Assembly (NCBI GenBank): GCA_963818475.1
Contig: CAWFSF010000005.1
Location: 320,001 to 384,000 of the forward strand
Reading direction: 5' to 3'
DNA from: Nitrospirota bacterium
GTDB lineage: Bacteria; Nitrospirota; UBA9217
DNA: 64,000 nt
Below are positions 2,745 to 58,423 of the stretch, in pieces. Numbering within the stretch: position 1 is the first letter of the stretch; each line of letters begins with the position of its first letter. Made by a program: the position numbers and the translations under genes. The notes under the pieces are model-generated. The model did not search any database and was not told the origin of the DNA. It saw nothing but the letters and a program-made list of their open reading frames with translations.

Positions 2745-3171
2745 AATTGTCCCCCCCTTTTGTTTTGATAAACCACATGATTTTCAATTCCGTGCATTGA
2801 TCCGTATGATAAATGTTTTCAAGCGAAATAGATCAAGCAGGACCTCAGTGCGTTGGGCTGCGGAAAGCATGACTGTTAGATTATATTCATTTAGGAAAGC
2901 ATGCGTTACAAGGAAGAGAATACTAAAAAGCGGATTTCATAGCAAGAAAATAAACGGGAAAGACTCTAAATAGGCGCGCGTACGCACCCCAAACTTCTTC
3001 TCAATGCGGATTGACACCTCAAAATTGTTTTTTTTCATGGCCAAATATTGACCATGGTGTAAAAATGCTTACCAACAGAGCTGTTCGGCAGCATACGAAG
3101 AGAAGGGCTGGCACAGCGCAATTAAGGATATGAGCATGCCGATCATGACTCGAATTCGATAACTCACGACA

Positions 3172-3813
3172 TCACCTCCTTGACTGCCCCTCTACCGTCT
3201 CCGAGTGCAGAAGGCCTTCGATCTGCCGGTCCTGTTCTCTCGACAGCCCGAGCATGGCAACGACAGATCCAATAAAGCACATGAACATGTCCCATTGCGT
3301 GTCCCAGGAATCACCCTGCGTACCCAGGAAGTCATCAGCTTTCTGGCCCAGGGCCACGGCAGCGGCCCATTCGATCAACTCGTACCAGGCGCTGACTGCC
3401 AGGGCAAAGCAAATCGCCAGGAAAGAGGCCATGCGCCGGTTTGATACATACCCGAGGCGAAGAAGAAGTTCCCGCGCAAGGAGCGATGGCACAAGTCCTT
3501 GAAAAAAGTGTCCGAGCCGGTCATAGTGGTTACGGCTAAGATGAAACAAGTCTGCAAACCAGAACCCGAGAGGTACGCGCGCATAGGTGTATGCCCCGCC
3601 CGTGATCAGTATAATTGCGTGAAGAAAAATGAAAAAGTAAATGAGCGGCGTCAGGGTAAGTCGACGATACGTGAGGACCAGAATAGGTACGACAATCAGG
3701 ATCGGCGCCACTTCCATGAACCAGGTGGCTCGATCGTATGGATGAACTGCAGTGGCAATGAGTAAGCCACAGAGGATTACGAGAAAAATCATTTGGGTTC
3801 GTTCACGAGGCAT
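3172..3813 (-). CDS. DUF2238 (YjdF-like) inner membrane protein
   Basis: Motifs W.ME, GG.YTYARVPLG, RNHYDRLGHF, YELIEW, FLGTQGD.WDTQWDM. Confidence 0.88.
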   Translation of the reverse strand: MPRERTQMIFLVILCGLLIATAVHPYDRATWFMEVAPILIVVPILVLTYRRLTLTPLIYFFIFLHAIILITGGAYTYARVPLGFWFADLFHLSRNHYDRLGHFFQGLVPSLLARELLLRLGYVSNRRMASFLAICFALAVSAWYELIEWAAAVALGQKADDFLGTQGDSWDTQWDMFMCFIGSVVAMLGLSREQDRQIEGLLHSETVEGQSRR

Positions 3814-5739: not shown

Positions 5740-5758
5740 CGATTAGGCTCACTTTCAA

Positions 5759-5817
5759 AAATAACACGCGGGTGAGCCGCGTGCTCCTTAGCGACGGATT
5801 CGACGCACCTGTTAAAT
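5759..5817 (-). mobile_element. Integron attC site
   Basis: Minus strand ATTTAAC AGGTGCGTCGAATCCGTCGC...CACGCGGCTCACCCGCGT GTTATTT; AAC...GTT bounded imperfect palindrome between co-oriented genes; arm nearly identical to 15148..15205. Confidence 0.7.
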
Positions 5818-5876
5818 TCTACCAAAGACTAGCTCCACAGTCCTTAGGAGTTGGCAACCTTTCGTGTGATTTTCAT

Positions 5877-6755
5877 TTATGGGGCGCTTGGCCGAATGCC
5901 TACAACCCTTGGTTCAAATAGTTTACCATAATAAAGCCTAATTTTGTACGAGGGCTCATCTTTATGCGTATCTGAGGATGAATATACTGTAGTTACGCGA
6001 TGTCCGGCCTTTGTAATGATGTCTTCCAGTTCGGTGCTCATCGGTATCGGAACGTGCACTTCAGAAATTAGGATTTCGTTGATGTACCCTTCAAGCTTAG
6101 GCAATCCTTTATTATCACTGCCATATGGCTTGGCAAACTGAAGCCTGACCTTCGCGGCCATGATGATGAAATGACTGCGGTCTGGATATTGTAGCCGAAG
6201 TTTTACAGGATCCTTGCCCACGTCAACAGCGAATAATCGTGAACGGGTTTTCAGCATGCGCTCATATTCTTCTTTGGCTTCTTTCAAATCCTTATCAGTG
6301 GCAGTGCCATTCTTATGTCTTTCTGCTACGGCCGAAAGGCTGAGCCGTTCCTGCTTGACCAGTTCATCCCATGTTTTTCCATCATACTCCAGCACTACAT
6401 ATGCTTTCCGTGGCAGCAACTTTTCATAATGAATCGCTGCATTAGTATCTGCAAGCGGCACAGAACAATCAAAGCCTGCTTCCTCGAGTTTAGCTTTATC
6501 GAACCAGTCATACTGAGACTCACCGCTCTTTCCCAGGAGGAATCTTCCATAAAAAGGATATTGATTCCAGATCAACCTCAACGAAATCCCGGTATTTTCT
6601 CTTTTTTCCTGATAGACGTCGAGCGGCAATTCCCGCTCGGTAAGTTCGACGACGGCATCAGGTTCGCCCGAACGATTGAGTATTACGCTTGCAAGGACAA
6701 TGATATTAACCAGCACAAGCAGAGCGATAGCGATATAAAGTCCGTACTTTCTCAT
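5877..6755 (-). CDS. DUF4824-like membrane-anchored protein
   Basis: N-terminal TM then NRSGEP...ELTERELP, SRLFAVDVG; start overlaps the DUF2157 stop. Confidence 0.72.
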   Translation of the reverse strand: MRKYGLYIAIALLVLVNIIVLASVILNRSGEPDAVVELTERELPLDVYQEKRENTGISLRLIWNQYPFYGRFLLGKSGESQYDWFDKAKLEEAGFDCSVPLADTNAAIHYEKLLPRKAYVVLEYDGKTWDELVKQERLSLSAVAERHKNGTATDKDLKEAKEEYERMLKTRSRLFAVDVGKDPVKLRLQYPDRSHFIIMAAKVRLQFAKPYGSDNKGLPKLEGYINEILISEVHVPIPMSTELEDIITKAGHRVTTVYSSSDTHKDEPSYKIRLYYGKLFEPRVVGIRPSAP

Positions 6756-7807
6756 GCTGCCACCTCCCGGTTGAGCGTCCGCAGCCGCTTCAGCATGATC
6801 AGGAGCAGGATGGCAACAAGTCCGATAAGGAGAAAGAAAAGATATTTCGGCATCCATTCCCACCACCAGTCATAGAATTTAGTATAGAGAAATATCGCAA
6901 AAAAAGTGCTGCCCAGGTTCGTGAGTCCCGTCCATTGGCGCGCAATACCCAGCCAGATAACGAGCCCGGAGGTAATGAAGCCCGCGATCTGGTAAAGGTA
7001 CTGCACGTGTTTGTGCGAAAGTGATAAGTAACTAATGTGGCCCCAGTTCGCGAGAATGAGCATTGAGATGAAGACTGCCAGTAAACCAAATACTCGATAG
7101 TGCGGCGGGAATTCATAAAAGGAGCGATGAGGGATGAAAGATATGGCGAAGAGAATAAGACCGGCTGCGATAAAATTCTCAGGCCGCTCGCCAAAATTTA
7201 ACCAATAACAACCGCTCCAGGTCCCGACAGTCGCCGATAGATACCCGGTAAGTGCAATGATTCCTGCCACGAGTAGTATTCTAAGACCATAGGTGTATGC
7301 CAGGATAAAAGCAAATAGCGCCCATGCAAGAAAGGCATTCTGTGACGGTGTGATGTTGAATATTTGGCCCAGCACACTCAGATTCAATACAAAGCAAGCG
7401 AACGCCACAAGGCCAATAATTGCGGAGAAGTAGAGGGTCTTCTCCTTTCGCGCTGCGACTTCAACGCCGAGTGCGGCAATCATGGGCGCGATGACGAGGA
7501 TAGCGACCTGAGATGGCGTGGAAATGAACCCCCAGATACGGTAAAAGAAGAAAAACATTGCCGCTGATATGGCTGCGGCGCCTAGAAATGAAATGATCCG
7601 CATACCCATAGACACCTGCCTCTGGGCGCTCGTTGTATCTATGTCGAATTGTCCAGCTAGCAAGCGGAGCATGTCATCGTGGTATTCGAAGAGATGACGC
7701 CGCTGGTCCTGGGGCAGAGAGAGGATTTTTTCCTTTTCCAGCGTTGTTAATTCAGCCTGAAAAGCACGAATGCGATCAGCCCGTTGCTGCGCTTGTTCCT
7801 TATGCAT
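6752..7807 (-). CDS. DUF2157-domain multi-pass membrane protein
   Basis: AQQRADRIRAF N-terminus, many TM segments, TKFYDWWWEWMPKYLFF C-terminus. Confidence 0.78.
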   Translation of the reverse strand: MHKEQAQQRADRIRAFQAELTTLEKEKILSLPQDQRRHLFEYHDDMLRLLAGQFDIDTTSAQRQVSMGMRIISFLGAAAISAAMFFFFYRIWGFISTPSQVAILVIAPMIAALGVEVAARKEKTLYFSAIIGLVAFACFVLNLSVLGQIFNITPSQNAFLAWALFAFILAYTYGLRILLVAGIIALTGYLSATVGTWSGCYWLNFGERPENFIAAGLILFAISFIPHRSFYEFPPHYRVFGLLAVFISMLILANWGHISYLSLSHKHVQYLYQIAGFITSGLVIWLGIARQWTGLTNLGSTFFAIFLYTKFYDWWWEWMPKYLFFLLIGLVAILLLIMLKRLRTLNREVAA

Positions 7808-12589: not shown

Positions 12590-14080
12590 ATGAAAGATAT
12601 CCAGCCAATATCCAAAGAAGAATGGACCTTTTTCGAGACTGTCGCCAGCGCCGCTTTTGCCAATCCCTTTGGCGAAAGACGTGACAGCTTGGACCGCAGC
12701 ATCGGAGGCGTTGGTGTCGATTCAACGGGCACGGAAATTATTCAGGCTGTAGTGGACCGCGTAGCGGCCCGCATGAAAGAGATAACAAGGAAAGGAAAGG
12801 CCGACCTGCGACAGTACGAGGGCAGTCGCCGCGAGCTGATTCGCCGTGTATTCTTATTCCACGTTTTCCACAGCTACACTGATCAGTTCGATGAGTTGAT
12901 TCAAGTCCAGGTGAAGAACGGTGACGTGCCCTGCCGCGTTGAGTTTTCTGACAAGGCATTGAGCGAGCTGCGTGCATTCGGGTTTTCAGAAGCAGATAGT
13001 CTGCGCTACTTTGCGGTGTTCTACCAGTTGCGCAGGGCGTATTACTTCATACGGAACGGCCTTGTCGGCAATTCTCCCTCCATGAAAGCTTTGCGGAAAC
13101 ACCTCTGGAACTGCGTCTTTACCCATGACATGAGCTGGTTCGAGGCGCGGCTCTGGAACCGGATGGAGGATTTCTCCATATTACTTCTGGGGGAGACAGG
13201 GACAGGCAAGGGTTCTGCTGCTGCGGCCATAGGACGGTCCGGATTCATTCCCTTCGATACGGGGAAAAAATGCTTCACCGAAACCATCAACCGAAACTTC
13301 GTCGCCATTAACCTTTCCCAATATTCGGAAGGCGTGCTGGAATCGGAACTGTTCGGCCACAAGAAAGGGGCATTCACCGGGGCTGTGGACAACCACGAAG
13401 GATTATTTAGCCGGTGCGCTCCCCATGGTACGATCTTCCTGGACGAGATCGGCGATGCGAGCATCCCGGTACAGATCAAGCTGCTTCAGGTGCTGCAAGA
13501 GCGGGTGTTTTTCCCCGTCGGGAACCACGAGGCACGGCGGTTTAGCGGCAGGATCATTGCAGCAACTAACAGGCAGTTGGATAAACTCCGGCGGGACGGC
13601 AAGTTCCGGGATGACCTCTACTTTCGCCTCTGCTCAGATGAGGTCGTTCTCCCGACCTTGCGGCAACGGTTCCAGGAGGATCCGCGCGAACTGGACCTCC
13701 TGCTCGAGAGCATTCTCTCTCGCCTCTACGGGGAGACGTCATCATCGAGAGTCGAGTCGCTGCAACATATCCTGCTACGCGACGTCGGAGCCGATTACCA
13801 GTGGCCGGGAAATGTGCGGGAATTGCAGCAGGCGGTAAAGAGGATTATCCTTACGGGAAGATACCAGGGGGAACAGGACCAGAGAAAAAGAGATGCAGCT
13901 GTGGCTAACAGTTTGACCGCTGGAATAACTGATTGCTCGTTCGACGCAGAGACACTTCTGGCTGAGTACTGCGCTTCGATTTACGAACGGTATGAGACCT
14001 ACGAGGAGGTTGCCAGAATAACGAAGCTGGACAGACGCACTGCTAAGAAATACGTCCAGATGGGATTTAAAAAGCCATAG
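12590..14080 (+). CDS. Sigma54-dependent transcriptional activator (bEBP) with an unrecognised N-terminal domain
   Basis: Walker A GETGTGKG, ESELFGH.KGAFTGA, Walker B IFLDEIGD, WPGNVREL, C-terminal HTH. Confidence 0.93.
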   Translation: MKDIQPISKEEWTFFETVASAAFANPFGERRDSLDRSIGGVGVDSTGTEIIQAVVDRVAARMKEITRKGKADLRQYEGSRRELIRRVFLFHVFHSYTDQFDELIQVQVKNGDVPCRVEFSDKALSELRAFGFSEADSLRYFAVFYQLRRAYYFIRNGLVGNSPSMKALRKHLWNCVFTHDMSWFEARLWNRMEDFSILLLGETGTGKGSAAAAIGRSGFIPFDTGKKCFTETINRNFVAINLSQYSEGVLESELFGHKKGAFTGAVDNHEGLFSRCAPHGTIFLDEIGDASIPVQIKLLQVLQERVFFPVGNHEARRFSGRIIAATNRQLDKLRRDGKFRDDLYFRLCSDEVVLPTLRQRFQEDPRELDLLLESILSRLYGETSSSRVESLQHILLRDVGADYQWPGNVRELQQAVKRIILTGRYQGEQDQRKRDAAVANSLTAGITDCSFDAETLLAEYCASIYERYETYEEVARITKLDRRTAKKYVQMGFKKP

Positions 14081-14107
14081 CAAGTTTTGTCGGTAGAGCT
14101 ATAAATA

Positions 14108-14255
14108 TGTCGTATCAAGAAACAATTAAGTCGCTTGAAATATAGTATATAACCTATTGATTTTTGGCTCTCCAAAAAAACGCTTAAAAGCGCGAAGTCA
14201 CCGGCTTTCCCGACTACAAACAATAAAGTCGTCAAAATCGCAAACAATTAAGTCG
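14108..14255 (+). repeat. Left end: three putative transposase-binding sites
   Basis: AAACAATTAAGTCG 14120-14133, AAACAATAAAGTCG 14218-14231, AAACAATTAAGTCG 14242-14255. Confidence 0.78.
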
Positions 14256-14451
14256 GCCCTTTTTTTGCTTTGGACGAAGCTCGCAATAAGAACAACCTCG
14301 TCGACTTCACCTACAAACCCGCATTTCCAGACAGACGAAACACTTGTCGAATTCTGTTTATAGCTTGCACATGAACGCCTAAAGGTACGGCGTGGTTGAA
14401 ATCATCATGTTGGGTTTCGCCGTGATCTACGCGGCCTATTTGTTTTGCGGC

Positions 14452-15123
14452 TCACTTATGGGCTACAAATAAGGCATAGCTTCCGACTACGTCCACAGAA
14501 TATGTCGCAAAATTGGCGGCTAATATCCTTTCTAGATCATCAGCGTTATCTTGCAGATTGCTGAAAACCGAAAGCTTATTATATAGGGGATTGGCGTGCC
14601 GGAAGAGAAAACCAGCATCAACCCCCTGGCCGAGAACGGTAGCGCCAAAAAATACTCCGCCTTTATTCAGGAAACGATTAAGGTTCCTAAAAACGATTTC
14701 CTTGCCCAGCATACTGCCGGGAAGACAGTGGAGGAAATTCGCGGCGCCGATAGAATTGAAGATCGGCATATCCCCAGGATAGGGTTCCAGCACGTTCCAG
14801 TGGTGGGCGACGGAATGGTATCTGCTGATTCGGCCGGATGCTTTTTTCAGAGAATTGGTATTCAGGTCCATCAGGTGGACGATCGGATGGGCGACCGGGA
14901 ATCGGCACTTATCAAGAAAATAACCGGAGCCGACGCCTACATCGAGATGCATATCCGAGACATGCTTATTGTAAAGATCGAGTATTTTTTTAGCGGAACA
15001 TTTAAAAATGCACTGCATTTCTAAAATCAGGACTTCCCAATCATAGATAGACAAAAGGAAATTAGAGTATACGGCGGCGCCTGCAATTGCCTCCTTTGAT
15101 GCTGGAATGTCTTTTTGGACCAT
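14452..15123 (-). CDS. Class I SAM-dependent methyltransferase (cassette gene)
   Basis: HLDVGVGSGYFL, LMDLN.NSL, FLHCLPG, GVFFGATVLG, FSN..D. Confidence 0.87.
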   Translation of the reverse strand: MVQKDIPASKEAIAGAAVYSNFLLSIYDWEVLILEMQCIFKCSAKKILDLYNKHVSDMHLDVGVGSGYFLDKCRFPVAHPIVHLMDLNTNSLKKASGRISRYHSVAHHWNVLEPYPGDMPIFNSIGAANFLHCLPGSMLGKEIVFRNLNRFLNKGGVFFGATVLGQGVDAGFLFRHANPLYNKLSVFSNLQDNADDLERILAANFATYSVDVVGSYALFVAHK

Positions 15124-15147
15124 CACTTCTCCTTTGCAGCTATATGG

Positions 15148-15205
15148 TTTCAACACGCGAGTGAGCCGCGTGTTTTTCGCGGCCTACTCTAACCGCTTGT
15201 TGGAT
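15148..15205 (-). mobile_element. Integron attC site
   Basis: Minus strand ATCCAAC AAGCGGTTAGAGTAGGCCGCG AAAAA CACGCGGCTCACTCGCGT GTTGAAA, between glycosyltransferase and methyltransferase. Confidence 0.75.
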
Positions 15206-15254
15206 CATGCCGTCTATTTTCAGCTTTTATGAGACGGCCATGATAACAACTTCA

Positions 15255-16526
15255 TCAGGAAAAGAATCGCTTCTCTATCAGTTCGATAGCTTTTATAATT
15301 CCATTTTCCTTTTGCATCATCGCGCTGAGTTCTTCAGCTCTCTTTTTCATATTAGGATCGTCAAGAACTGTTCTTATGGCCTGGCCCAACTTGCGTGCCG
15401 TTATCTTTCTTCTGTGAAGCACATTTGTGGCAACACCCAGGCGCTGTAATTCGTTTGCATAAAAAGTCTGATCTCCAAAATGTTCAATGACAACCGATGG
15501 ACAGCCGTGAAGCAGTGCAGAATGAGTCGTACCCGCACCGCCGTGATGAACTACCGCGGAACAATAGGGAAAAATATATTGATGAGGCACGTTCTGGATC
15601 TTATATATATCGGGATAGTTGGGAAAGTCACGAAGTTCGTCCCACCGGGATTGGACAATGGCCCGGCATCCCGCAGACAATGCGCCCTGAACCAGGATTT
15701 TAGTAGTTATGTCCGGCGATGCGTCGAGAGAAAACATGCTGCCCAACGTTATAAAAACCGGTGGAGCGCCTGCTTCCAGAAACTGCTTCAAATTGCCAGG
15801 CATGGTCCATTTTTCAGCTGTGTTCGGGACAGTGAATACGCCACAAACATGATGATAGTCGGGCCAGTCCGGCTGTTTACGTCCGATTGCAGAAGTTTCG
15901 GCAACAAGGTTCAATTCTCTTGATATCCACACGGTATCTGCAATTTTCGAGGCTGGCGACAACCCAATCCTTTTTCTCAATTTATTCACTTCTAAACCGA
16001 TTGTACGATCTACTAAGTAATTAAACAATTTCCACCAAAAAGGGTTCATCCATTTCCCGAAATTGGGAACCCCAAAAATTGGGGTGTGCTTTGAATAGAT
16101 CCCGGCGTGGTTAAGCATCACGCTTGCGTAAGGCCTGTGCGCTTTTTCAGCAGCAGCTTGCACAGGGTAGTGGAGGAAGTGCCCAATGATTACGTCATTT
16201 TCGAGACAAAGCCGCTCTGCTGCGTCAAACATTTCCAATATAAGAGGATTAAAATAATACTCCAAGATAAGTTCAATTTGCTTGAGGGAATTAGGTGCTC
16301 CGATTATTTTGTCTTGAAAAAGACGAATTGTTTTATCATCATAGGTCAGCTTACCGATGTGTGATAAGGCAAAATTCATTTCTCTTCCGTAAGAGCTGTA
16401 ATCCTTGTTATCCACGCTCGTTACGACCATCGAAACGTCATGACCTCTGGTACGTAAGCCGCCTGCCAACGCAAGCAACGGGCGGATGTCACCATCACTG
16501 CCCCACGTTTGCAATCCGATCTTCAT
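15255..16526 (-). CDS. GT-B glycosyltransferase, family 1 (sterol/EryCIII-like), cassette gene
   Basis: MKIGLQTWGSDGDIRP, GHDV, ITLGS, HHGGAGTT, GDQ; true start follows the attC and an RBS. Confidence 0.9.
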   Translation of the reverse strand: MKIGLQTWGSDGDIRPLLALAGGLRTRGHDVSMVVTSVDNKDYSSYGREMNFALSHIGKLTYDDKTIRLFQDKIIGAPNSLKQIELILEYYFNPLILEMFDAAERLCLENDVIIGHFLHYPVQAAAEKAHRPYASVMLNHAGIYSKHTPIFGVPNFGKWMNPFWWKLFNYLVDRTIGLEVNKLRKRIGLSPASKIADTVWISRELNLVAETSAIGRKQPDWPDYHHVCGVFTVPNTAEKWTMPGNLKQFLEAGAPPVFITLGSMFSLDASPDITTKILVQGALSAGCRAIVQSRWDELRDFPNYPDIYKIQNVPHQYIFPYCSAVVHHGGAGTTHSALLHGCPSVVIEHFGDQTFYANELQRLGVATNVLHRRKITARKLGQAIRTVLDDPNMKKRAEELSAMMQKENGIIKAIELIEKRFFS

Positions 16527-16535
16527 CTTTTTCTC

Positions 16536-16596
16536 CTGTAACGCGCGGATAAGACGCGATACCTCTCCGCGTCGTCCTCGATCCGCATCGTTAGAA
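16536..16596 (-). mobile_element. Integron attC site
   Basis: Minus strand TTCTAAC GATGCGGATCGAGGACGACGCGG...CGCGTCTTATCCGCGC GTTACAG; starts 3 bp after the DUF4386 stop and is followed by GGAG-ATG. Confidence 0.82.
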
Positions 16597-16599
16597 TCA

Positions 16600-17325
16600 T
16601 CATGAGGATTCACTTCGTTCTATCCGACCTGCCGACTTGGAAGCGATTGCAGTAGGATTGAATCCTTTAACGATCAGCCATATTGACATAACCAGTTCTT
16701 GCAAGCCTATTGGAGGCGCAAAATAAGCCATGGCCTTCATCAATGGCATAGCACCGAATATATCGAACATGTGTAACAATGCACCTATTGATAAAAGAAC
16801 AGCTGCCAAAAACCCCCAACCTGATAGCCAACGAGGAATAAGCTTGGATTTAAATAGTAAATAGTAAAACAGAATAGCGCCTAAAGTATAAACGATTATA
16901 TAAAGCAGCGTGGCCCATTCTGTTCTTGCGTGAATTGAATTACCCAATACTTGGAAATATGAATCAGGCGGAGCTCCTGAGTGTAAATAGTCCTGACTTA
17001 AACTGATAAGTGACAGTGAGTTGATAGTGAGAAAAATATGGAGAACGCCCTCGAGGAGCCTGAAAACAACATACCCAAGCGCTATTCTTTCATTAAATAT
17101 TTTAAACAGGGGAAACAACATGATTGGAATCAGAATCATGGCAGGAGCACAAATGAAATCAAGTAGTATTCCTATTTTCACCGGAATTTTATTTGGATAT
17201 ACATTAACAATATAGTCCGGAGCATTGAGAATGGGTCGATAAATATTTGAAGCCACAATATTAAAGACAAGCGCAATTAGAAATAATACTCCTACACTTA
17301 TTGCGGTTTTTCTGTATGAATTCAT
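16600..17325 (-). CDS. DUF4386-family membrane protein (cassette gene)
   Basis: RKTAISVGVLFL, ALGYVVFRLLEG, SKLIPRWLS.WG, E...IWLIVKGFN. Confidence 0.85.
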   Translation of the reverse strand: MNSYRKTAISVGVLFLIALVFNIVASNIYRPILNAPDYIVNVYPNKIPVKIGILLDFICAPAMILIPIMLFPLFKIFNERIALGYVVFRLLEGVLHIFLTINSLSLISLSQDYLHSGAPPDSYFQVLGNSIHARTEWATLLYIIVYTLGAILFYYLLFKSKLIPRWLSGWGFLAAVLLSIGALLHMFDIFGAMPLMKAMAYFAPPIGLQELVMSIWLIVKGFNPTAIASKSAGRIERSESS

Positions 17326-17347
17326 TATTTCTCCTTTTTGTTCTTAC

Positions 17348-17467
17348 GTATAATCTCGGCGGTAAGCAGCCAGCCCCTGCAGGGGCGATCCGGCCGTCGG
17401 AACGCGAAGCGCTGAGGGAACCTGCAAGCCCAGCTTGCAGTTGGTCCGGTTGACCGAGAGATTAGGC
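17348..17467 (-). mobile_element. Long attC site with variant AAT/ATT cores
   Basis: Minus strand GCCTAAT CTCTCGGTCAACCGGACC AACTGCAAGCTGGGCTTGCAG...GCTTCGCG...GCTGCTTACCGCCGAG ATTATAC; the upstream ORF stop TAA lies inside R''. Confidence 0.75.
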
Positions 17468-17680
17468 CACGACACCAGGGGCATTAACGACACTCAGCAA
17501 CCACTGGCCTTGCGTGCCAGCGAGGTACTCGTTCCGATATTGGCAAAAGGCCGGATCCAGCGTCGATAGGGACGCCGCCGACCTTCCATAAGCAACTGAT
17601 GGATCTATGCTTTGAACCTTGGTATCCACCCGGAATGCGGGACACTTTTCGTTCCAAATGAAGCGCGTTCCAGGAGTCAC
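17462..17680 (-). pseudogene. Short or remnant cassette ORF
   Basis: 72-aa frame ending within the attC R'' box; no recognisable product. Confidence 0.35.
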
Positions 17681-17746
17681 GAATATGCCGGTTAAGTAGG
17701 AGAGACTCCGATCAGCCTGCGGCTCTTTCCAACGTGCTTAATTTGG

Positions 17747-17855
17747 AACTTAATTGTTTGTCTAAAATAAACTAGAGGGAGTTTTTAGATGACTTAATTG
17801 TTTAACGATGACTTAATTGTCTAAGTTACGACTTAATTGTTTCTCCATAGAGGCA
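17747..17855 (-). repeat. Right end: four putative transposase-binding sites
   Basis: + strand AACTTAATTGTTT 17747, GACTTAATTGTTT 17791, GACTTAATTGTCT 17810, GACTTAATTGTTT 17830 (19-20 bp spacing), terminus ...GGCA at 17855. Confidence 0.8.
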
Positions 17856-17861
17856 AAATCC

Positions 17862-19498
17862 TCAGCTCTCGCACGCAAGCTTCGCAAGCTCCTCCGAAAA
17901 CATCTCGAAATTGACCGAATAATCTACCGGGCATTCGATCACGACGAGCTTCTTCAGGGCAAAAGCGTCCCGCAGGACCTTCGTAAGATCGTCCCCTTCG
18001 CGCACCTTCACCCCCACCGCGCCGAAGCTCTCGGCGTATTTCGCAAAATCGGGATTCCGGTAATCGAGGCCGAAGGCCGGGAATCCCTTGGCCTGCTGCT
18101 CCCACTTGATGAACCCGAAAGCATTGTCGTTCAGGATAAGCACGACCAGCGGGATGTCATATCGGAGGGCTGTTTCCAGTTCCTGCGAATTCATCATGAA
18201 ACCGCCGTCGCCCACCACGGCAAGCACCTTCCGGTCCGGCCGGAGCATTTTCGCGGCGATGCCGGAAGGCAGCCCTGCGCCCATGGTCGCCAGGGCGTTG
18301 TCCAGCAGGAAGGTGTTGGGCTTGTACGTGCGGTACAGCCGCGAGAACCAGAGCTTGTAGATGCCGTTGTCCAGGGTCAGGATGTCCTCGTGCGCCAGGA
18401 CCTCGCGAACGTGCCGGACGATATCCTGCGGCGTCAGTGGGTATTGTTTGTTGAATTCGATCGAAAGTTTTCTGTCCAGGAATTCACGGACCTCCCGGAA
18501 GGTCTTGTCGCTCTTCCGGTCGGCCACCAGTTCTCCCAGCTGCTGCAGCGAGCAGGAGATATCGCCGATGACCTCGATGTCCGGGTTGTAGTACGTGTCC
18601 ACATCAGCGCCGCTGAAATCGATATTGATGATCTTCTTGTCGAGATTTCTGTTCCAGACGTAGGGCGGATATTCAACGATGTTATACCCGATGGTGATGA
18701 TCAGGTCGGCCCGGTCGATGCCGCAGTTGACGTAATCGCGCCGGTGGATCCCGGCTGCGAAGAGGCTGTAGTCCGATGCATCGCTCAGCACGCCTTTTCC
18801 CATCTGCGTGTGCACCACATGGATGCCGGTCTTGTCGATGAACTGCATGAGCTGCTTCGTGATCAGGTTGCGGTTCGCGCCTGACGACAGGATGATGAGC
18901 GGGTGCTTCGCTTTGTTGATCAGGTCGGCGGCGCGCAGGATCGCCTTGCGGTCAGGCGCGGGCCTCCGCACATAGACCCCGTTTCTGGATCTTTGCATTC
19001 GGTCTCGCTTTCGGCCACGTCCTCGGGCAGTTCGATGTGGACCGCGCCCGGACGCTCCGCCTGGGCAAGCTTGAACGCGTTCCGCAGCACCGTGGGGATC
19101 TCGCCCGGATCGATGATGGAAACGGCATCCTTGGTGAGCGGCCGCATGACGCTGACGATATCGATGAGCTGGAAGCGGGCCTGACGGTTCTCGCGCAGCG
19201 CCTTCTGGCCCGAGATGGAAATGAAGGGCGCGCCGATCAGCTGCGCATGGGCGACGCCGGTCACGAGGTTCGTCGCGCCCGGTCCGAGCGTGGAGAAGCA
19301 GACGCCGGCCTTGCCGGTCAGCCTTCCGTAGGTGGCTGCCATGAAAGCGGCTGCCTGTTCATGCCGGGTGATGACGACCTTGATGGACGACGTGCGAAGC
19401 GATTCGAGCAGATCGAGGTTCTCCTCGCCCGGCAGGCCGAAAATATATTCCACTCCTTCTTCTTCAAGCTGCCGCACGAACAGGTCTGATGCTTTCAT
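17862..19498 (-). CDS. Acetolactate synthase large subunit-like TPP enzyme (frameshift near 18990)
   Basis: GLPGEENL, TRHEQAAAFMA, GPGATN; TPP motif GDGGFMMNSQELETA; split over two ORFs. Confidence 0.9.
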
Positions 19499-19556
19499 GA
19501 ACACTCCTGAAAATAAAAGTTACCGCCGAGACACGGAGAAAGGCGAATGGCAACAC

Positions 19557-58244: not shown

Positions 58245-58350
58245 TATCTTAAGGCCTCCGTGCTGAATAGCTGATTATCAACAGCAGCCTTGCCAAAATG
58301 ACGATACCGTTTTGTATTTTAGAATCTTGTGTTTGCTTTATGCTCTTTCC

Positions 58351-58408
58351 TCATAACGCCGCCGTGAGGAGTGAGATTTTCGCGACTCACTCGACGCGCA
58401 GGTTGGCA
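58351..58408 (-). mobile_element. Integron attC site
   Basis: Minus strand TGCCAAC CTGCGCGTCGAGTGAG...CTCACTCCTCACGGCGGC GTTATGA, 15 bp after the LprI-gene stop. Confidence 0.75.
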
Positions 58409-58423
58409 TGGAATGGCAGATGT

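Follow-up and report, generated by a model that had tools for sequence, protein, structure and literature searches.

The window analysed in this study, a stretch of 64,000 nucleotides (C5:320001-384000 of the query genome G000; GenBank assembly GCA_963818475.1, contig CAWFSF010000005.1) from a Nitrospirota bacterium whose 4.66-Mb assembly consists of 7 contigs and is 91% complete, carries between positions 14113 and 17849 an element of 3,737 bp in which two arrays of short repeats enclose four genes and a series of attC-type palindromes, directly behind the gene for the large subunit of acetolactate synthase. We consider it quite likely that this element is a non-autonomous member of the Tn7 lineage, made up of transposon ends plus a cluster of integron cassettes without an integrase, and seated at an attachment (att) site behind the synthase gene. 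Conserved neighbours were searched at the DNA level in 40 relatives, and family-wide gene counts were obtained from 64 genomes, 6 of which belong to the genus of the window. Termini, duplications and attC box sequences in relatives were read by eye from printed sequence. Additionally, four public runs (X1 to X4) were compared with window positions 13400-18600; the share of sampled words present was at most 0.15 in any run, and parts of the window left uncovered in these runs are not evidence of absence. The locus contains the following features (window positions; open reading frame, ORF; S-adenosylmethionine, SAM):

14113-14262, plus strand: left end of the Tn7-like element, terminus TAT at 14113, three TnsB-type sites
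14120-14133, 14218-14231 and 14242-14255, plus strand: cores of the left-end sites, start-to-start spacing 98 and 24
14180-14193, minus strand: terminator-like hairpin with T run, between left-end sites 1 and 2 and downstream of the cassette array
14385-14450, minus strand: degenerate attC remnant after the methyltransferase cassette, with short similarities to attC_b and attC_c
14452-15123, minus strand: class I SAM-dependent methyltransferase cassette gene, 223 aa, ATG at 15123, Methyltransf_12 E 5.7e-07
15144-15207, minus strand: attC_c, ending the glycosyltransferase cassette, R'' ATCCAAC and R' GTTGAAA
15255-16526, minus strand: family-1 glycosyltransferase (EryCIII-like / UDPGT) cassette gene, 423 aa, ATG at 16526
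16532-16598, minus strand: attC_b, ending the DUF4386 cassette, starting 1 nt past the stop codon, TCGAG bulge typical of the lineage in the 5' half
16600-17325, minus strand: DUF4386 membrane protein cassette gene, 241 aa, Pfam DUF4386 1.3e-35
17348-17467, minus strand: attC_a, atypical long attC-like palindrome with R''-stem-TCAAC bulge layout, AAT/ATT replacing AAC/GTT
17462-17680, minus strand: 72-aa ORF, first unit of the array, of no known family
17747-17849, minus strand: right end of the Tn7-like element, sites starting at 17747, 17791, 17810 and 17830, spacing 44/19/20
17850-17861, no strand: gap of 12 nt between the right terminus and the synthase stop codon, the att position
17862-19504, minus strand: gene for the large subunit of acetolactate synthase, serving as attachment-site gene and matching Pfam TPP_enzyme N, M and C

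The motif AAACAATWAAGTC(G) is present in three copies on the plus strand at the left end (14120, 14218 and 14242) and, allowing at most one mismatch, in four copies on the minus strand at the right end (17747, 17791, 17810 and 17830). Five matches were counted in the window against 0.01 expected, a number reached in none of 100 shuffles. In the whole genome, the 13-mer with at most one mismatch had 12 matches, seven of them at this locus; the other five are isolated singles, no more than a backwards-read control gives (15 in the 4.66-Mb genome). The motif is therefore clustered only at this locus and is not a genome-wide factor site. A sequence-only reading of the window had described the same arrays, three repeats on the left and four inverted ones on the right, and had named a genome-wide transcription-factor site as the alternative to a transposon; all seven sites were found, and their restriction to one locus in G000 speaks against that alternative. 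The ends carry a 21-nt terminal inverted repeat with 90% complementarity (14113-14133 versus 17829-17849) and are asymmetric, with spaced TnsB-type sites on the left and packed ones on the right, a feature by which members of the Tn7 family are recognized. The interior was also AT-rich as had been described, with a G+C content of 38-51% versus about 52-66% in genes beyond both ends. An Rfam search of positions 13900-18000 returned no family at E values up to 5.

An autonomous relative was found in G014, a genome of a different genus, in which similarity to the window continues from the synthase gene across the whole right-hand array. The right end in G014 has four sites with the spacing of the window (44/19/20), lies directly behind the orthologous gene and is 84% identical to the right end in the window, and the left end, about 33 kb away, has three sites, again with the spacing of the window (98/24). 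This element measures 33,209 bp and is bounded on both sides by a perfect GAAGG duplication; its left end reads 5'-TGTCGCGAG followed by a site, and its right end a site followed by ...CTTTATA-3'. According to Pfam, it encodes tnsA (PF08722, 9.6e-19), tnsB (PF09299) and tnsC (TniB/AAA_22), as well as two tnsD genes (PF15978 plus PF06527; PF15978 up to 3.4e-67). Compared with solved structures, G014 TnsB best matched Tn7 TnsB (PDB 7pik; E 8e-95 versus 2e-19 for the nearest CRISPR-associated TnsB), TnsC matched Tn7 TnsC at E 9e-68, and the larger TnsD matched Tn7 TnsD at E 1e-18. No tnsE was seen in the element, nor a resolvase among the 15 ORFs scanned. Given that the same arrays bound tnsABC and two tnsD genes in G014, we infer that the repeats in the window are the ends of a Tn7-family transposon close to prototypic Tn7. 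A TnsB-family element with the same ends, which the sequence-only reading had proposed to search for, thus exists, with identical spacings, at the same site and with a perfect duplication.

The cargo of the G014 element comprises a type I restriction-modification system (HsdM/HsdS), ThiF with a prokaryotic E2 protein, an M78 peptidase with a helix-turn-helix partner and a ResIII helicase. Between its right end and tnsA lie some 11 kb of cargo (element from L039 6306 to L027 19515), whereas tnsA is adjacent to the end in Tn7, and single extra end motifs lie inside this element at L039 13829 and 16111.

The relatives also revise the termini. The sequence-only reading had placed these at 14108 and 17855, flanked by AAATA and AAATC as a duplication with four of five matching letters; this register yields no duplication in G014 or in G003, a genome of the window's own genus with an element at the same site. 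The ends in both relatives have a common geometry, nine nucleotides and then ACAAT. Moreover, run X1 has one contig in which 17848 is followed, head to tail, by 14113 after six intervening letters (depth 2.8; 43 letters on the shorter side). Because of the duplications in G014 and G003 and this junction, we place the termini 5 and 6 nt further inside, at 14113 (TATCAAGAA...) and 17849 (...TTCTCCATA), where the right terminus reads ...CTCCATA. The resemblance of AAATA to AAATC was a coincidence of the wrong register. Terminal triplets vary among the relatives: right ends read TAT in G014 and G016 and TGT in G003 and G044, and the left end in G014 reads TGT.

The position of the element is as conserved as its ends. 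Measured from the synthase stop codon, the distance to the right terminus is 12 nt in the window and 11 nt in each of G003, G014, G016 and G044, and the same insertion point and orientation, with the right end proximal, recurs across three genera (g1, g10 and g12). By position and orientation, we read this as TnsD-type homing, specific for both site and orientation, that has been in repeated use in the three genera. In the search of 40 relatives, the synthase gene itself turned up in most, with identities of 70-92% that follow relatedness. In G000 it consists of two overlapping frames (17862-18998 and 18920-19504) where relatives have one frame of 555 aa, so that a frameshift near 18920-19000 represents either a real pseudogene or an assembly error; NCBIfam NF006187 scored 494.9 bits for the C-terminal part in the window and 799.5 for the intact G014 orthologue, with a cut-off of 509. 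Acetolactate synthase is unnamed in the available main texts of two surveys of Tn7-like elements, the supplements of which may list it (PMC8649781; PMC10293859).

Several relatives carry remnants at this site. The element in G003 measures 4.7 kb, is bounded by a perfect AGCAG duplication and is decayed, its ends being reduced to the first site on the left and the final 16 nt on the right; G023 retains one site, nearer to the synthase stop codon; and G003, G016 and G023 together represent progressively decayed remnants at the synthase site. In G044 (L127, contig C154, 1498-1560), the right end is 98% identical to that in the window over 53 nt and has the canonical ...ACA terminus; this contig stops 125 nt inside its element. 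A contig of run X2 over the synthase gene, differing from the window in 86 of 740 letters, departs from it at 17861, with no end motif in the 30 letters shown, and could possibly represent an empty site.

Ends of this type occur well beyond the family. The right-end doublet, two cores 19-20 bp apart, turned up in the genomes of 19 species, which span several phyla, as well as in 38 metagenome contigs. Its neighbours in the five of 19 records examined were a sigma-54 response regulator, an ammonium transporter, a major facilitator superfamily transporter, ExbB and a solute-binding protein; none of these is acetolactate synthase, and therefore the att gene appears to be specific to this bacterial family. 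The left-end pair pattern had no match in the metagenome contigs. A miniature element of about 350-470 bp with inverted ACAATTAAGTC-core sites was present with different flanks in L076 (about 6418-6885) and L083 (about 2915-3285), and elements with near-identical ends of about 1.8 kb (L087, 5880-7680) and about 3.5 kb (L103, 95-3650) lie in two metagenome contigs, where both follow directly on the stop codon of one conserved gene, whose product ends in ...EREPNW. All of these elements are far too small for the transposition genes, the latter two being too small for tnsABC plus tnsD. Derivatives of this end type without tns genes are thus recurrent. A 7-nt direct repeat, CATATGT, flanks the copy in L083, which resembles a miniature inverted-repeat transposable element (MITE) derived from a Tn7-type end. 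In a Deltaproteobacteria metagenome-assembled genome (L068, 5032-5084), the doublet lies about 11 nt from the stop codon of a sigma-54 response regulator gene. A sigma-54 activator gene in the window likewise ends 32 nt from the left end, and this likeness is probably a coincidence.

Between the ends, the genes are arranged as integron cassettes, four co-directional units with intervening attC-type sites like those of the family's integrons. A home-built covariance model, R1, stood in for the attC model of IntegronFinder; of the 13 attC candidates in the G021 integron, two (L055 11680 and 12526) had 3' halves that could not be aligned and were dropped before the model was built from the other 11. 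With filters off, R1 gave four matches in the 64-kb window, all on the minus strand and two of them inside the element: attC_b (26.8 bits, E 5.6e-05; the homologous attC in G010 scored 25.8 bits) and attC_c (29.8 bits and E 7.8e-06 on the minus strand versus 11.4 bits on the plus strand; hairpin z about -3). The model recovered an unused attC of the G021 integron at 56.6 bits and had no match in 279 kb of unrelated control loci (42 of 58 newly fetched loci, the 15 shortest and a plasmid locus being left out). Both attC_b and attC_c begin right after a stop codon and carry a TCGAG-like bulge of five nucleotides in the 5' half, as in the layout common to the G021 sites, where an R'' ending in AAC is followed by a stem, a TCGAG bulge and an R' starting with GTT. 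The bulge marks the top strand in the G021 array, and therefore the strand of the attC sites agrees with that of the genes. The two matches outside the element, at 5755-5819 and 58347-58410 (both minus strand), scored 29.6 and 30.6 bits.

The sequence-only reading had counted three attC sites and had described the cargo as integron-type cassettes without intI. Two of these sites, 15144-15207 and 16532-16598, are supported by the model; the third (17348-17467), with AAT/ATT in place of AAC/GTT, was missed by R1 and folded with z -1.5 on the minus and -2.5 on the plus strand. The remnant at 14385-14450 was also missed by the model, and its fold was not significant (z -0.2 to -0.3). When the four palindromes were compared with the genome by short-word BLAST, only scraps were returned; the search is uninformative because attC sites are too diverse. 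In the intI search of G000, TIGR02249 had 13 matches, none over the 265-bit cut-off (best 105) and none in the window, and an intI over the curated cut-off was present in 28 of 64 family genomes and in none of the six of the window's genus. An intI adjoining the array, as in a complete integron, was not found, and the description of the cargo as cassettes without intI holds.

The cassettes occur in other orders elsewhere. In G010, the DUF4386 cassette (90% identical DNA) and the methyltransferase cassette (91%) are adjacent on contig C6 and joined at an attC without the glycosyltransferase between them; the latter gene (Pfam EryCIII-like_C 1e-18, UDPGT 1e-09) is 78% identical to DNA in contig C11 of the same genome. 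Contigs of run X4 join 15144 to 16632 and 16547 to 14442, and therefore the order in that other sample is DUF4386, methyltransferase, glycosyltransferase. With two model-supported attC sites 1.3 kb apart, no intI over the cut-off and cassettes in other orders elsewhere, the array is classified by its sequence as an attC site cluster without an integron integrase (CALIN) under the published definition (PMC4889954). G000 is littered with such integrase-less cassette clusters, with 50 model matches (E up to 0.01) in small clusters over five contigs. No attC was detected by R1 in the G014 or G003 elements.

Less can be said of the first unit of the array. The 72-aa ORF had no Pfam or PHROGs match and no likeness to TnsA, and in its region homology to other organisms ends at 17677. 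This is the point where contigs of both X1 and X3 diverge (17677/17678, the start of the 72-aa ORF), and in X3 the region of this ORF is connected to the synthase gene via 816 other letters. Run X1 additionally contains cassette contigs, of which eight listed pieces measure 240-524 letters and differ from the window in 3 to 35 letters (about 90-99% alike). Given that one X1 contig leaves the window sequence at 14251 and that the cassette contigs break at 17677, the contigs of X1 do not establish a link between the ends and this cargo. Signals for transcription gave little further information: a promoter scan was uninformative (7 found versus 6.5 expected), and the terminator-like hairpin within the left end comes from a consensus scan that gave 6 such sites in the region against a shuffle mean of 3.9.

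As the sequence-only reading had stated, the element has no transposition genes of its own: Pfam found no transposase, resolvase or integrase domain in the four internal genes. Searching G000 with the five G014 Tns proteins by tblastn returned nothing below E 0.1, and PF09299 and PF06527 had no match in G000, a search that lacked a positive control genome, though the G014 proteins match both families. The tns genes required of a full Tn7-like member were thus seen neither inside the element nor in the genome. Given that these genes are missing from the window copy and present in G014, we regard the element as a non-autonomous derivative and not a full member. Nor does it belong to the MITE-like class, since it measures 3.7 kb, contains four genes and occurs just once in the genome. 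The element as a whole was not found in the 63 other family genomes.

A number of observations weigh against the interpretation as a non-autonomous Tn7-lineage element with cassette cargo. The flanking 5-mers at the corrected termini are TGTCG and GAGGC, so that a target duplication is absent around the window copy, and the termini read TAT/ATA, not the TGT/ACA usual for Tn7; mutation of the TGT/ACA termini immobilised mini-Tn6022 (PMC11014353). A cognate TnsB is rare, being present in one of 64 family genomes, with two others holding only relatives of 23-25% identity. Nothing close to the left flank (7 kb) was found in five congeners. On the side of the cargo, the two attC sites of the element are among the weakest of the 50 in G000 (26.8 and 29.8 versus up to 69 bits), the third site is non-canonical and undetected by the model, the fourth is a remnant, and the E-values of R1 are rough, as its sites all come from one integron of another genus. 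A tns helper or an intI may also sit in the missing part of the 91% complete genome. Finally, TnsB binding, TnsD recognition, target immunity and read-through expression, which we invoke below, are all predictions.

Three other accounts concern what the repeats and genes are. That the repeats serve as transcription-factor sites, for example for the sigma-54 activator whose gene ends 32 nt left of the array, is barely conceivable, since the same arrays bound the G014 tnsABCDD element with its perfect duplication, arrays occur nowhere else in G000, and the activator gene is not conserved beside the arrays in relatives; we regard the G014 element and the occurrence at a single locus as refuting it. 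Multiple short end repeats and 5-bp duplications are common to the Tn7 and the Tn5053/Tn402 families, and TGTCGT is present at 14108-14113, in line with the label Tn7/Tn5053-like given by the sequence-only reading. The Tn7 half of this label stands, but the Tn5053 half does not: membership in the Tn5053/Tn402 family (TniABQ plus resolvase) is highly implausible, as the autonomous relative encodes TnsA and two TnsD proteins along with TnsB and TnsC closest to those of Tn7, the termini at 14113 and 17849 turn TGTCG into flanking sequence outside the end, and insertion occurs in fixed orientation behind a conserved gene and not into a res site. On the basis of TnsA and TnsD in G014 and of the 15 scanned ORFs without a resolvase, we rejected this assignment. 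It is also very unlikely that the palindromes are terminators or other repeats and the genes an ordinary small operon. The modest attC scores, the third site without AAC/GTT and the failure to find intI in the genome are compatible with an operon, but a model from another genus matched attC_c on the gene strand only (29.8 versus 11.4 bits) and nothing in the 279 kb of controls, the R''/stem/TCGAG bulge/R' layout is common to the G021 sites, and gene order varies between genomes with breakpoints at the palindromes.

Two further accounts concern how the element came to its present form. It may have decayed in place, a full G014-like element having lost its tns module and most of its cargo, with the left flank replaced by rearrangement and without the mini-element ever having transposed; we would give this history about even chances. 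It would account for a position exactly at the family att site where a full element would land, for the lack of a target duplication and for the occurrence of the whole element in none of the 63 other family genomes, and it has parallels in the progressively decayed remnants of G003, G016 and G023 at the same place and in remnant Tn7-like insertions at att sites, e.g., behind nrdB in Acinetobacter baumannii (PMC11014353). The left flank, non-syntenic with five congeners, also fits such a history: the native left flank of G003 maps to a different G000 contig, with likeness stopping about 880 bp before the G003 left end, and the flank in G000 appears to have been replaced, although no simple rearrangement linking the two could be reconstructed. 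However, the element has whole ends in which none of the seven sites is missing and the spacings match those of the autonomous element, whereas the true relics in G003, G016 and G023 have lost most sites, and the X1 contig abuts the two termini. Intact ends with a layout identical to that of the autonomous element would instead be expected of a mini-element that is itself mobile, a naturally occurring mini-Tn7 that depends on a rare autonomous partner for mobilisation in trans and shuttles the cassette array between hosts, which we consider a tentative possibility. The head-to-tail junction in X1 exactly at the termini (17848 to 14113), the short contigs of the cassettes in the same run and the small tns-less elements with the same site motif elsewhere (L076, L083, L087 and L103) are consistent with mobility; a single copy without a duplication or tns genes in the genome weighs against it. 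The X1 junction may come from two different neighbouring elements in tandem at the att site, rather than from a circle or dimer. To our knowledge, Tn7 does not form circles, given cut-and-paste by TnsA/TnsB. The stronger version, in which a natural mini-Tn7 is still being mobilised in trans, ferrying cassettes to a safe site behind acetolactate synthase, with the X1 junction as a trace of recent activity, seems unlikely to us.

A non-autonomous Tn7-lineage element at the synthase att site would have arisen and persisted as follows. It would have reached the att site by transposition with TnsABC plus TnsD, with TnsB bound to all seven sites and one or other TnsD protein recognising the end of the synthase gene. 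An integron integrase from elsewhere, acting in trans, would have placed and reshuffled the cassettes. Given that neither tns genes nor intI were found in G000, the element is probably stranded today, yet should be mobilisable by a helper of the G014 type. Meanwhile, target immunity conferred by its ends may protect the att site, by analogy with an immobile mini-Tn6022 copy (PMC11014353). Read-through from the synthase gene would be the likeliest source of cassette transcription, because the cassettes are co-directional with that gene and the scan gave no promoter that convinced.

Tn7 itself carries an integron (class 2), has its attachment site attTn7 behind glmS and encodes TnsABCDE. Prototypic Tn7 is thus the closest known system, with which the window element shares asymmetric ends, a right end facing the 3' end of a conserved gene and an integron cassette cargo, and its relatives share the 5-bp duplication (G014 and G003) and the best structural matches of TnsB, TnsC and TnsD (G014). 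An element annotated as Tn7 on plasmid OW849012.1 shows this plan too: immediately upstream of tnsA, the same 9-nt terminus is followed by three sites at intervals of about 20 bp. In contrast to Tn7, the window copy lacks tns genes and intI, its att gene is acetolactate synthase and not glmS, insertion occurs 11-12 nt after the stop codon, its termini are TAT/ATA, and G014 has two tnsD genes and no tnsE seen. Dual tnsD/tniQ loci are common (1,048 loci; PMC10293859). The pairing of transposon and integron, which the sequence-only reading had presented as an independent event of its kind, is not new as such, since 10% of the 6,549 Tn7-like transposons surveyed carry an intact or partial integron (PMC8649781); the window cassettes encode no resistance function.

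Other known systems share parts of this organisation. The laboratory mini-Tn7 and mini-Tn6022 constructs likewise consist of a left end of about 150 bp and a right end of about 100 bp around unrelated cargo; donors of the mini-Tn7 type transpose with Tns proteins supplied in trans, and further insertion is prevented where an immobile copy already occupies the att site (PMC11014353). In contrast, the window element is natural, known from sequence alone and has no helper found in its genome. With the remnants behind nrdB in A. baumannii (PMC11014353), the family shares decay at a fixed att site, as in G003, G016 and G023, whereas the window copy has complete ends. It differs from a CALIN as published (PMC4889954) in that its array sits inside transposon ends. 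The Tn5053/Tn402 family resembles it in end repeats, 5-bp duplications and a historical link to integrons, in contrast to the TnsA and TnsD, the targeting of a gene end and the lack of a resolvase seen in the G014 relative. Each ingredient is therefore of a known kind, and a modest novelty lies in their combination: a Tn7 lineage homing to acetolactate synthase, together with a natural copy that consists of no more than its ends and a cluster of cassettes.

None of these findings overturns the current understanding. They extend the list of attachment-site genes by acetolactate synthase, used by a lineage close to prototypic Tn7, and provide a natural example of a Tn7-family element reduced to ends plus cargo, with integron cassettes in such an element in an environmental lineage with about 50 scattered attC sites and no integrase found. 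For engineering, the G014 proteins, together with defined ends and a landing site 11 nt behind a conserved gene, constitute a candidate homing system. Our results also raise the question of whether non-autonomous Tn7 derivatives really travel. If the element proves to be mobile, the small tns-less relatives in other phyla would represent a recurrent, overlooked class of non-autonomous Tn7 derivatives.

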